20,000 nucleotides of DNA from an uncultured virus (IMG/VR IMGVR_UViG_3300013923_000004) (taxonomy: Duplodnaviria > Heunggongvirae > Uroviricota > Caudoviricetes). The DNA lies in the IMG/VR virus record IMGVR_UViG_3300013923_000004, positions 58,316-78,315 of that record; one strand, 5' to 3'. The number at the start of each line of letters is the position of its first letter. Within the stretch, counting starts at the first letter, position 1. Below are positions 2,344 through 5,210 of the stretch, piece after piece. The translations under genes and the position numbers were made by a program. Below the pieces are notes generated by a model that did not search any database, was not told where the DNA came from, and saw only the letters and a program-made list of their open reading frames with translations.

Positions 2344-2520
2344 GGACAAGGCCGGACATTTCACTCCCCATTCGCTTAAAAACGTGCCCCCATTCGGCCT
2401 ATGGGGCCGAAGACTTGCTGTACACTTTTTAACCAATTAGCTCATTTTTCACTCATCCAGCTATGGAATTATCCATTCGCTGAGGTTTTTGCTTTCACGC
2501 TAATCGCCACCGAGGACGAC

Positions 2521-3951
2521 ATGGCCAACGCCACCCTATCCACCCTCCAAAGCCCCACCGGAAAGGTGCGGGTCAAGTTGCAGTCGCTGCCCGCCACGCC
2601 CAAGGGTTTCCCCAAGCAGCGTCTCTGCCCGTCGAGCAAGTCGGTGCGAGCCAACTACGGGCTGAGGGCGCCAGAGGTAGCCTGCGCGATGGCGGAAAGC
2701 CTGTCGTATGCCTATGCCTCACTGAGCGAGCCGGCGTTCGCGCCAATGGCCTGCGGGCCGTTCACCGAAAGGATGTTGGCGCAGTACGTCGGAAGGTGCC
2801 TGTGGAGCTGGGACGATGTGCCGGCGTTCATTCCGCCGAAGAGGGTGCCGCCGCTGCCTATCCAGGCTGCCCAACAGGCAGAGGACGACACCGCCCAACA
2901 GGCAGAGGCTGCCACCGACGGCAACGCCGAACCCCCCATCTACAACCCGGGCGAGGTCTCCCTCTACCACTGCTCCCGCCGCCTGATGCAGATCGCCATG
3001 CGCTGCACCGCCCTGTTCCCCGAGGACATGCGATCGGTCAGCCCCCGCCTGTCCTGCAACCTGCTGCTGGGCAGCTACAACAGCGTCGACCGCGCCGTTG
3101 CACGGTTCCTGGCAGGCGCTGGCATGGAATACGACGGCCAAGGGTTGGCAGCGGCACTGGCCCACGTCGGCTATGGCGAGGTGCAGGACGGCGGGCTCCC
3201 GCCCTTCCACCGGTTGCCAGAGCGCAGCAAAAGGACGGGCTACAGCGTGCGCCAATCGCTGGCCCTGGACCTGGCCGGACCGGAAGGAACGCTGCCCCTA
3301 GCCCACGCAATTTTGAGGTCCACGCTGTACGAGGACGACCTGGCCAAGCGCCTGATCGAGGTAAAGGAGGGAGTGCTGGAACGGCTGCGCGAGCTGGCTG
3401 TGGAGGTGAGGGGCGTCGCCCCTGACGTGGCACAGATGATCGAGGACGGCGACATACCGTACGAAGGCGCTGCGGAGCGCGTGGTGCGCGGTGTCTGGGA
3501 CCTGGACCTGGGGGTGCTCGACGAGGGCCGATCTACCGCGGACCCCGACGACGACCTGATGGCGCTCACCTGCCGAATGATCATAAGCGCGCTGGGCACA
3601 GGCCACGCCTACATCGGCGCAACGACACTGTTCGCCCTGGCGACGCTGTCTGGTGTGTCGCCGGCGGCATACGTCCGCTATGCCGAGAAGGACCTGGAGC
3701 GCCGCGGAGTCACCTACCTGACCAGCGCGACCGTGGGAGAACTGGCTGATCTGGTGGCAGAGGCAGACCTGAAGAAGGAGTCCCGAAGGGGCGTGCTGAT
3801 CAAGGAGCTGCGCCTGCTCGAGGCCCGTCTGAAGCCGATGGAAGAGCTGCTGGAGAAGCGCGGCGAGCGGGTGAAGCGGCTGATGCGGGTGCGTGGTTGT
3901 CGGGTGGCTGAGGAGTGGCGCAAGGGTGGGAATAGGGAGTTGGAGGACTAG
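2521..3951 (+). CDS. Large orphan protein (476 aa), basic N- and C-termini
   Basis: GAGGA RBS before ATG 2521 (better supported than 2401); GC3-rich long ORF; no family recognised. Confidence 0.8.
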   Translation: MANATLSTLQSPTGKVRVKLQSLPATPKGFPKQRLCPSSKSVRANYGLRAPEVACAMAESLSYAYASLSEPAFAPMACGPFTERMLAQYVGRCLWSWDDVPAFIPPKRVPPLPIQAAQQAEDDTAQQAEAATDGNAEPPIYNPGEVSLYHCSRRLMQIAMRCTALFPEDMRSVSPRLSCNLLLGSYNSVDRAVARFLAGAGMEYDGQGLAAALAHVGYGEVQDGGLPPFHRLPERSKRTGYSVRQSLALDLAGPEGTLPLAHAILRSTLYEDDLAKRLIEVKEGVLERLRELAVEVRGVAPDVAQMIEDGDIPYEGAAERVVRGVWDLDLGVLDEGRSTADPDDDLMALTCRMIISALGTGHAYIGATTLFALATLSGVSPAAYVRYAEKDLERRGVTYLTSATVGELADLVAEADLKKESRRGVLIKELRLLEARLKPMEELLEKRGERVKRLMRVRGCRVAEEWRKGGNRELED

Positions 3952-3966
3952 CGAATCGAACTTTAT

Positions 3967-4234
3967 GCGAATACCGATTCGGTAGTTGCCAGCAACCATG
4001 CGGCCTGCGGAGGGTACCCGCACAATGTGCGGGTACCCTCTTTCGCGACTCACACGACCTGAATCGCCACGCTTCACGAGGACGAAAAAGCTGACCCCCA
4101 CAATGTGCGGGTCAGCTCTGTAACCGGCAAATAACGAATCGTTATTTGCCAGCAACCACGCGGCCTGCAGCGGAGTTGGGGGTACCTACGTCACGTAGGT
4201 ACCCTAAAGACCCGCACAATGTGCGGGTCTTTAG
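3967..4234. repeat. Array of six palindromes arranged in two related units
   Basis: 3967-3989 (imperfect), 4010-4040 (31 bp), 4089-4117 (29 bp, 1 mismatch), 4126-4150 (25 bp), 4180-4204 (25 bp), 4204-4234 (31 bp); linker TTGCCAGCAACCAYGCGGCCTGC occurs twice (3986, 4146). Confidence 0.92.
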
Positions 4235-4246
4235 AAATCACAAGTA

Positions 4247-4276
4247 TTTACAGCAATACAGGAACACTGCCATGAT
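4247..4276 (+). promoter_or_regulatory. Putative sigma70 promoter for the c4-kilA unit
   Basis: TTTACA-N18-CATGAT with a TG extension; the -35 element lies inside a GTATTTACAG operator-like motif. Confidence 0.45.
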
Positions 4277-4300
4277 AGCGACGCCTCAGCGCACTGAGGC

Positions 4301-4335
4301 CCTGGTTTGGCGACCGGGAAAAGGAGCGGACAGTC
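4301..4335 (+). promoter_or_regulatory. C4 target sites (a1/b1-like)
   Basis: Hairpin loop TTGGCG is complementary to CGCCAA (4421-4426); GAGCGGACAGT is complementary (with G-U pairs) to GCTGTCCGTTC (4400-4410). Confidence 0.65.
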
Positions 4336-4349
4336 TGGATTAGCCCGTT

Positions 4350-4446
4350 TATGGCGGGCTGAGAGTGGGAGACCTGCGAGGGTCTGCCGGTTACGCTCGG
4401 CTGTCCGTTCTCCACCGGTTCGCCAACCCACTCTCAGCCTGCCACC
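4350..4446 (+). ncRNA. c4: C4-type antisense RNA (P1/P7 c4 family)
   Basis: 18-bp closing stem 4352-4369/4427-4444, inner hairpins AGACC..GGTCT and CCGGT..ACCGG, unpaired segments complementary to the upstream sites, and position before an antirepressor-like gene. Confidence 0.7.
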
Positions 4447-4460
4447 CTATTCGGTGGCTC

Positions 4461-4472
4461 CCGTAATTACAG
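4461..4472. promoter_or_regulatory. Operator-like motif CCGTAATTACAG overlapping the kilA RBS
   Basis: Member of the repeated intergenic motif; runs into AGGAG. Confidence 0.6.
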
Positions 4473-4481
4473 GAGTTACGC

Positions 4482-5210
4482 ATGTCTGACATTATCAAAA
4501 TCGACTTCGAGAGCCGCCAAGCAGAGCTGCACCTCGACAACAGTGGGCGCTACAACCTCAACGACCTGCACAAGGTGGCGGGAGGTGGGTCGAAGCATCA
4601 GCCTTCCAACTTCCTGCGCCTCGACACTACGAAGGCACTCATCGAAGCGCTGGAATTGGAGCGTTCCTCAGATCTGAGGATCGGTCAAGAATTGACCAAA
4701 AATTTAAGCTCCTCAGATCTGAGGAGCTTAAATTTTTCGCCCGTTGAAGTGGTCCTCGGCAAAGGCAAAGACCAAGGCACCTTCGTAGCCAAAGAACTGG
4801 TCTACGCCTACGCCATGTGGGTGAGCCCGAGGTTCATGTTGGCGGTCACCCGGATCATTGATGAAATCGCCCGGACCGGCACCTACGCCCAGGACCGCTG
4901 GGTCGACTTCGCCGAATACTGCAACCTGGTCCGCAAGAGGATCAGCCCACGCAGCAAGACGCTGACCACGGTGCCACACAGTGTCAGGCACGCCCTGATC
5001 ATTGCCCGGGCCGATCCCGCGATGGGCGATGCCATGGTGTTTGGCGATGGAGGCGCGTCGTGGGTCCGAGAGGATCGGCTGAGCACGGCGTTCTGTATGT
5101 CCGCAGCCAAGGACGGCCAGGTGAACCGACACCACTTCGAGGCGGTGCGAGAAGCTGAGGAGTACAGCGTGCTGACGAAAGCGGAAGTTCTGGTAAAAGC
5201 CAACCCTTAA
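4482..5210 (+). CDS. KilA-N domain protein (antirepressor-like)
   Basis: GRYNLNDLHKVAGG..KHQPSNFLRLDTTKALIEAL..QGTFVAKELVYAYAMWVSPRF is a typical KilA-N domain; AGGAG RBS. Confidence 0.9.
   Translation: MSDIIKIDFESRQAELHLDNSGRYNLNDLHKVAGGGSKHQPSNFLRLDTTKALIEALELERSSDLRIGQELTKNLSSSDLRSLNFSPVEVVLGKGKDQGTFVAKELVYAYAMWVSPRFMLAVTRIIDEIARTGTYAQDRWVDFAEYCNLVRKRISPRSKTLTTVPHSVRHALIIARADPAMGDAMVFGDGGASWVREDRLSTAFCMSAAKDGQVNRHHFEAVREAEEYSVLTKAEVLVKANP
4698..4737. repeat. Perfect 40-bp palindrome inside the KilA-N coding sequence
   Basis: AAAAATTTAAGCTCCTCAGA|TCTGAGGAGCTTAAATTTTT; its 16-bp core is also present at 4665-4680. Confidence 0.95.

Follow-up and report, generated by a model that had tools for sequence, protein, structure and literature searches.

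The window analysed in this study, a stretch of 20,000 nucleotides, is the final 20 kb of a 78,315-bp IMG/VR provirus. It contains an array of palindromes with an orphan gene on one side and, on the other, a unit composed of a promoter-like site, a C4 antisense RNA, and an antirepressor-like gene with the KilA-N domain (Table 1); both flanks agree with those named in an earlier reading of the same DNA (hereafter, the sequence-only reading). No family was found for the orphan gene in Pfam, PHROGs, NCBIfam or PADLOC. Its product has 20 relatives of 437-513 aa, one of which is named as a protein of Stutzerimonas stutzeri, and the gene adjoins the array in all syntenic relatives of the provirus, which include the IMG/VR contigs L016, L017 and L018, as well as the metagenome contig L114, which is much the same as L017.

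Table 1. Features of the palindrome array and its flanks (positions refer to the window)
Feature	Position	Strand	Description
Orphan gene	2401-3951	+	516 aa from the first ATG; from the ORF list; upstream of the array and co-directional
palA copy 1	3967-3989	.	Imperfect dyad GCGAATACCGA-T-TCGGTAGTTGC, 11-nt arms, 82% complementary
Linker copy 1, conserved	3990-4009	.	Starts with CAGCAACCAYGCGGCCTGC; kept in L016, L017 and L018
P1	4010-4040	.	Perfect, 15-nt arms, GGGTACC outer arms, core CGCACAATGTGCG; frame +1 reads GGYPHNVRVPS
Putative decayed Bro-N coding flank	4041-4088	+	FRDSHDLNR / LHEDEK, frameshifted; homology alone not significant
P2	4089-4117	.	Near-perfect AGCTGACCCCCACA-A-TGTGCGGGTCAGCT, 14-nt arms, 93% complementary
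palA copy 2	4126-4150	.	Perfect, 12-nt arms, GGCAAATAACGA-A-TCGTTATTTGCC
Linker copy 2, conserved	4151-4173	.	Direct repeat; from the alignment of relatives
P3	4180-4204	.	Perfect, 12-nt arms, GGGTACCTACGT-C-ACGTAGGTACCC
P4	4204-4234	.	Perfect, 15-nt arms; of all dyads the closest to the promoter, with 28 nt from its centre to the -35 hexamer
Promoter-like site	4247-4276	+	TTTACA-18-CATGAT, TG before -10; predicted for the C4-antirepressor transcript
C4 antisense RNA	4347-4449	+	Rfam RF01695, 64 bits (gathering score 45)
Antirepressor-like gene	4482-5210	+	KilA-N N-terminal domain, Pfam 2.7e-19
Coding palindromes of the KilA-N gene	4663-4737	.	Core CCTCAGATCTGAGG; imperfect 4663-4684, perfect 40-nt 4698-4737

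The KilA-N gene starts 33 nt past the C4 RNA. Its product belongs to PHROGs families of transcriptional regulators and anti-repressors, and its C-terminal domain is common with the Bro-N antirepressors of L016 and L018 (92-93% identical to that of L016). The promoter segment TATTTACAGCAAYACAGGAAC is kept in L016, L017 and L018. In the immI region of P1 type, a C4 antisense RNA controls an antirepressor, and the components of such a region, namely, a promoter, a C4 RNA and a co-directional antirepressor gene, are found in the unit neighbouring the array, not in the array itself. The palindromes within the KilA-N gene encode a variable loop of low confidence in the AlphaFold model (pLDDT ~50) and have homologous units inside the arrays of L017 and L018. 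The longer of them, of 40 nt, looks like a bidirectional terminator inside the gene because of its A5 and T5 flanks; it gives a sub-threshold match to the Rfam isrJ family (25.5 bits vs. the gathering score of 37), and contigs of short-read assemblies break at it.

Certain other sequences in the vicinity of this unit and elsewhere in the provirus deserve a mention. Three perfect palindromes of the CCTGTA..TACAGG type, located outside the window (provirus positions 37415-37438, 48947-48972 and 56757-56780), have GTATTTACAG in common with window positions 4245-4254 at the C4 promoter, and their motif may be a phage-specific promoter or an operator of the main repressor. Upstream of C4, CTGGTTTGGCGACCGG (4303-4320) is complementary by eye to CCGGTTCGCCAACC (4415-4428) within C4, a candidate pairing that resembles an a1/b1-type target. 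The ORF at 1049-1882 gives a weak Bro-N match below the Pfam cut-off (E 0.0018, 19.3 vs. 25.6 bits) and holds GYRDTDALRRR, which is reminiscent of FRDSHDLNR of the array; no palindrome is present at its loop, the best stem score being 6.

The array itself (3967-4234) consists of six dyads, four of which are perfect around a single central base with arms of 12-15 nt, and all the dyads described in the sequence-only reading were found, together with the finer features that it had listed. Three dyads have a common core, CCC(G/C)CACAATGTGCGGG, within different outer arms; the three copies of this core in the 78,315-bp provirus are all inside the array, and none of the three CACAATGTG cores of the provirus lies outside it. 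The GGGTACC arms surround two different cores. The two dyads that precede the same linker and differ by symmetric changes are parts of a 47-nt direct repeat of palA and linker (3967-4013 vs. 4127-4173, 83% identical), whose inner palindromes differ by one symmetric pair of changes and by the centre base. The spacer can be translated with a shift of frame, as had been described, frames +3 and +1 reading ...FRDSHDLNR... and ...TLHEDEKADPHNVRVSS..., respectively. Perfect palindromes with arms of at least 12 nt number seven in the provirus, five of them within 4010-4737, as compared with 0-1 in 20 second-order Markov simulations of the provirus; for arms of at least 9 nt the respective numbers are 15 and 0-6.

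Comparison of the window with its relatives shows that phages nearly identical in other respects do not have the same array content. The block of palA and linker and the block of promoter and C4 RNA are present in all syntenic relatives, and the dyads between these blocks are different in each; the expectation of cores that vary and linkers that stay fixed was borne out, the linker and the promoter being constant. On the side of the orphan gene, nucleotide identity to L016 is 95% as far as window position 4006. All the antirepressors have a C-terminal domain in common, preceded by KilA-N in the window and in L017 and by Bro-N in the other two IMG/VR contigs, L016 and L018, and the types of array, of C4 RNA and of antirepressor N-domain assort independently in four relatives. 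The 19-nt core of P4 is identical in L016, where it is 27 nt from the -35 hexamer, although overall identity in this region is only 74%. The element palA copy 2 equals an element of L016 and L018, the centre base excepted. A metagenome scan with the C4 pattern recovered only L114 and L115. Matches to the promoter motif in genome contigs (39 loci in unrelated taxa) were judged from their titles to be due to chance, and those in the viral contigs L070 and L073 proved to be unrelated coding sequence.

Contigs assembled from public runs add further variants. Those of X1 and X2, from two such runs, have no difference from the window in 3904-4727 and 21-26 differences in 3600-3903, which places a mosaic boundary at about 3903. 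In one contig of X3, a sludge metagenome run, exactly one unit of 160 nt is missing (joint 3985>4146) and the centre of P4 is changed from A to T, while in another contig of the same run 38 nt with a different perfect palindrome replace 4126-4244, directly before the promoter. Differences in the centre base between homologous copies are complement flips in five cases out of five, and they include palA (T/A), the L016 gene and the L017 array (T vs. A), position 4219 (A>T), and P3 (C vs. G). As to the antirepressor genes themselves, the Bro-N genes of L016 (2707-3060) and L018 (2710-3060) are near identical in their first ~105 nt and last ~75 nt, and the central ~180 nt, loop palindrome included, are replaced.

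Matches to the antirepressor genes of other phages show, at the nucleotide level, that the array elements are copies of the loop palindromes of these genes, some with adjacent frameshifted coding sequence. Window positions 4181-4205 (P3) are identical in 25 of 25 nt to the loop of the Bro-N antirepressor gene of the syntenic L018, which contains GGTACCTACGTGACGTAGGTACC and encodes KGYLRDVGT in a protein with a Pfam Bro-N match of 4.5e-25; the same slot in the L016 array is occupied by a different loop of Bro-N type, which reads KGVAIHDTL. Positions 4087-4117 (P2) match the loop of the L173 Bro-N gene in 25 of 31 nt, EK codons included, a score reached by only 3 of 300 random own-genome segments. 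In the array of L017, a stretch of ~85 nt is 86% identical to the Bro-N gene of L016, palindrome included, with a 7-nt deletion, and units homologous to the segment of the KilA-N genes that comprises the palindrome and its non-palindromic flank occur twice in the L017 array and three times in that of L018. It is on these four sets of matches that the identification of the elements as loop copies is based. In addition, GACGAAAAGCTGACC of P2 is present in the L141 gene, and P1 resembles AAGGGTACGCAGATTGTGCGTACCCTT of the L126 Bro-N loop. All array fragments that can be oriented are in the orientation of the gene, and the outer arms of the array copies are eroded.

The proposal of the sequence-only reading that the palindromes come from Bro-N antirepressor genes is thus supported by P3 and P2. 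The profile search that it had suggested as a check came out negative: neither Pfam nor a custom HMM finds anything at 4041-4131. In particular, 4063-4131 has no match in Pfam at E<=10, an HMM derived from 80 relatives with Bro-N placed no array piece among the top matches of 2690 six-frame pieces, and the score of the 48-nt flank at 4041-4088 is within chance expectation, since 117 of 300 controls score as high. Profile searches have little power in this case, as no fragment exceeds 23 aa and the reading frame is shifted. Neither IMG/VR nor the GenBank phages yielded a gene with the CACAATGTG core. A scan with a degenerate core returned three contigs, none of which holds a Bro-N gene, and searches of GenBank phages with the whole region or with the array alone at E<=10 gave nothing or chance matches of 22-27 nt. 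In IMG/VR, the core is present in 12 contigs, of which one is a syntenic relative and the others contain ordinary terminators or are unrelated. On the whole, the observation made in the sequence-only reading is confirmed, and its claim on the origin of the array is supported.

A palindrome located at a single fixed position, in a hypervariable loop, is a general feature of KilA-N and Bro-N genes. A stem score of at least 9 was obtained exactly at the hypervariable loop in 34 of 51 KilA-N loci vs. 33 of 3668 control segments (0.9%), the 34 positives representing ~9 distinct palindrome families, as many of the surveyed loci are close relatives. Of the 54 loci fetched for this survey, L016 and L018 were excluded as Bro-N loci and L068 as one with the loop uncovered. 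Among Bro-N loci, the loop stem score was at least 9 in 16 of 80 (34 of 2829 control segments, 1.2%) and at least 7 in 37 of 80 (7.7% of control segments). In one KilA-N family, the third bases of the Ala and Pro codons covary (G-C, C-G, A-T), GCG/GCC/GCA going with CCC/CCG/CCT at synonymous sites, and the peptide KAGIPAL is unchanged. The segment encoded by the palindrome corresponds in AlphaFold models to the loop of low confidence (pLDDT ~50) in the KilA-N protein and, in Bro-N, to residues 52-60, which form the first strand of a beta-hairpin; no solved structure of either N-terminal domain was found by sequence. Mismatches in the stems show no excess of sense-strand G-T pairs, and many of the coding dyads are symmetric through the centre, which together do not indicate a purely RNA-level constraint.

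Certain loci contain more than one such palindrome. Three tandem Bro-N genes of L147 (1501-3312) have a different loop palindrome in each, and the KilA-N gene sb46 of ST64B (L200, 1366-1446) has two, namely, CCGAGGG.GGAATTCC.CCCTCGG with one mismatched pair, and GATACCCAAA-A-TTTGGGTATC; sb46 has no Rfam match at E<=0.01. The upstream palindrome of L160 proved to be an ordinary terminator. The Roi protein of HK022 reportedly binds a site inside its own gene. The P-Q interval of HK022 contains no perfect palindrome with arms of at least 8 nt.

The explanation of the array that we favour, if tentatively and with less than even confidence, is that it represents debris, or a passive reservoir, of antirepressor loop cassettes, which recombination would have produced and whose symmetry template switching at hairpins would maintain. 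Short pieces taken in one orientation from the central loop cassette of Bro-N genes, and in the relatives also from KilA-N genes, would have accumulated at the mosaic joint between the orphan gene and the immunity module of promoter, C4 RNA and antirepressor. The copies would arrive by illegitimate or unequal recombination and by gene conversion between the palindromes of co-linear related phages. Judging by the patterns of variation, intrastrand (hairpin) template switching would make or keep the perfect symmetry, and would also yield chimeras of arms and cores, symmetric double changes, flips of centres, and gain or loss of units; complement flips of centres are a signature of spacer inversion by template switching. 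The array would then have no dedicated regulatory role in this phage and would be a by-product of the process that diversifies the DNA-binding loop of the antirepressor.

The loss of a unit and the replacement of a block in X3 point to the dispensability of array elements, and the eroded outer arms are consistent with debris. We found no consistent cis-regulatory logic for the array. Its four cores are absent elsewhere in the 78-kb provirus, even with 1-2 mismatches, no cognate gene for any array palindrome was found in this provirus, and the palindrome proximal to the promoter matches the type of the phage's own antirepressor in at most one of the four relatives. Several points count against debris. 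The array is present in every syntenic relative found (L016, L017/L114, L018, and the X1-X3 contigs), the core of P4 and its spacing are conserved between the window and L016, and most elements are trimmed to little beyond the palindrome, which random debris does not predict. Phage genomes, moreover, tend to shed useless DNA. The prevalence of coding palindromes in distant KilA-N and Bro-N genes argues for a function of the palindrome, which its extragenic copies could share.

Template switching at quasipalindromes and inverted repeats has been associated, in the accessible portions of the relevant reports, with homogenisation of arms, inversion of spacers and one-step formation of perfect stems (PMC8604942, PMC8794818, PMC7202029). 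The palindromes described here are similar to those cases in that paired changes keep the arms perfect, including changes at synonymous or amino-acid-changing sites, the centres are inverted, and the arms extend into the flanks. They differ from what those portions describe in that the repeat is located at one conserved codon position in two virus DNA-binding families, and in that gene-less copies accumulate in an intergenic array. As a mutational phenomenon, the array belongs to a kind already known, here tied to a feature that is widespread in the genes of KilA-N and Bro-N proteins. We know of no extragenic copies of the coding palindromes of Nematomorpha. Mitochondrial genes of these animals contain perfect inverted repeats of up to 284 bp within coding sequence, according to the accessible part of the report (PMC6649704); the location of palindromes inside coding sequence is similar, and the system and scale are different.

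A rather unlikely alternative, in our estimation, is that each coding palindrome is a putative cognate site of its own KilA-N or Bro-N domain and that the array collects such sites of foreign phages. By analogy with aba and BstA, these might serve as operators that couple the promoter of the C4-antirepressor unit to foreign antirepressors, or as multicopy replication decoys. With similar reserve, one may suppose that KilA-N and Bro-N proteins would recognise the palindrome of their own gene, and that a library of foreign sites, kept by this phage group beside its immunity promoter, would sense the proteins of other phages or soak them up, and perhaps also donate loop variants to the gene. If true, this would mean cross-talk onto the C4-antirepressor switch, or counter-defence of the aba kind. 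KilA-N and Bro-N are DNA-binding domains, the palindrome is located at a fixed loop or beta-hairpin position, and the symmetry often goes through the centre of the dyad, which is not needed for an RNA hairpin. The conserved core of P4 and its conserved spacing to -35 in L016 also fit this explanation. The arrays are, in addition, reciprocal, the window array having the palindrome of the L018 gene, and the L018 and L017 arrays having the KilA-type palindrome of the window gene, but recombination among phages that draw on a single gene pool would lead to the same pattern. Further points against a collection of foreign sites are the eroded outer arms of the array copies, the fit of the promoter-proximal palindrome to the phage's own antirepressor type in so few relatives, and the lack of a gene with the CACAATGTG core in IMG/VR and among GenBank phages.

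A precedent is provided by BstA of Salmonella prophage BTP1, a protein with a KilA-N-like domain that, according to the accessible part of the report (PMC8585504), is neutralised in trans by its cognate DNA, the aba element, which overlaps the bstA gene and acts as DNA at high copy. The likeness concerns the KilA-N-like protein and the DNA element overlapping its own gene, while cognate specificity has been described for aba; as described in that part, aba is a 63-bp element located where the gene begins, has direct repeats at its ends and is not palindromic, so it differs from a loop palindrome, and a function of the array here is putative. The BstA models of PADLOC match neither the KilA-N protein of the window nor the antirepressors of L016, L017 and L018. 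An operator array of a phage repressor was rejected, as no core was found at other promoters of the provirus, and no cognate regulator gene was found.

It is improbable, in our view, that the dyads act in RNA as stacked terminators, insulators or 3'-end stabilisers that shield the promoter of the C4-antirepressor unit from read-through. The location of the array, with the stop codon of a co-directional gene ahead of it and the promoter directly after it, would suit such a role, and the bare CCCGCAC-AAT-GTGCGGG with a T run is an ordinary terminator in most of 11 unrelated IMG/VR contigs. The 40-nt palindrome of the KilA-N gene, with its A5/T5 flanks and its sub-threshold match to isrJ, may be counted on the same side, the isrJ of Gifsy-1 being a terminator sRNA that ends a C4-antirepressor operon. 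However, intrinsic terminators, which consist of a G+C-rich stem with a loop of 3-8 nt and a subsequent T run, were sought in 3700-4700, and none falls within the array; downstream of each of the six dyads there are at most 3-4 T on either strand. Besides, the complementarity extends as far as the central base, which is flipped in some copies relative to others, the mismatches show no sense-strand G-U bias, and no Rfam family fits the array.

We know of no palindrome array upstream of the P1 immI or Gifsy-1 modules. The promoter, C4 RNA and antirepressor are arranged in the same order in the window and in P1 immI. This order is also that of isrK-orf45-anrP-isrJ of Gifsy-1, as far as the accessible parts of the papers on that locus describe it (PMC4825925, PMC2330248). 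The N-terminal domains of the antirepressors of these two modules are different, that of AnrP being ORF6N. In Gifsy-1 (L201, NC_010392, 33406-34329), the Rfam families c4-a1b1, isrK, C4 and isrJ were found at gathering thresholds around STM2616 (AnrP). The presence of these families around an ORF6N antirepressor-like gene makes isrK-orf45-anrP-isrJ look like a C4-antirepressor immunity module. The terms 'C4 antisense' and 'phage P1' are absent from the 2016 paper on this locus.

Hardly probable is a donor pool, in which the array would store loop variants and gene conversion would copy them into the expressed antirepressor gene. Silent-cassette gene conversion of this sort is known from vls of Borrelia and pilS of Neisseria, where promoterless partial copies lie near a gene family; unlike these, the array elements are of ~30 nt and not cassette-sized, and gene conversion here is putative. 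The replaced central part of the otherwise near-identical Bro-N genes of L016 and L018, the two different Bro-N-type loops in the same array slot of the window and L016, the co-orientation of the fragments with the gene, and the different loop palindromes of the paralogous Bro-N genes of L147 are in line with such a pool. However, the tract replaced between L016 and L018 is far above the size of any array element, and no array-to-gene conversion event was identified. Furthermore, the gene of the window is of KilA-N type and its array has only Bro-N-type loops, while in L018 the reverse is true, so that most cassettes cannot serve the resident gene.

Whatever probability remains belongs to readings other than debris, a collection of foreign sites, RNA-level shielding, and a donor pool. 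A CRISPR array or tandem repeat was rejected, the core copies being 78 and 116 nt apart with different arms, and REP and integron attC readings were dropped; in the comparison with REP elements, which occur as many dispersed copies in a host genome, the core was counted three times in the provirus, always in the array. Palindromic repeats located beside bro genes are known as hr of baculoviruses. Unlike in the case of hr, we know of no enhancer or origin function of the array elements.

Among the top-ranked matches of a literature search, neither the coding palindrome nor its gene-less copies were described, which is weak evidence of absence; for neither KilA-N nor Bro-N genes does the loop palindrome seem to have been published. 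Few domains of phages and large DNA viruses are as common and as poorly understood as KilA-N and Bro-N. The conserved loop palindrome, together with its gene-less copies by an immunity switch, makes the biology of these domains testable. It might be that the palindrome is what the protein itself binds, that it serves recombination as a device for the exchange of specificity loops, or that it is a mutational structure that perpetuates itself, and any of these three possibilities would bear on the diversification and cross-regulation of the induction and defence factors of temperate phages.
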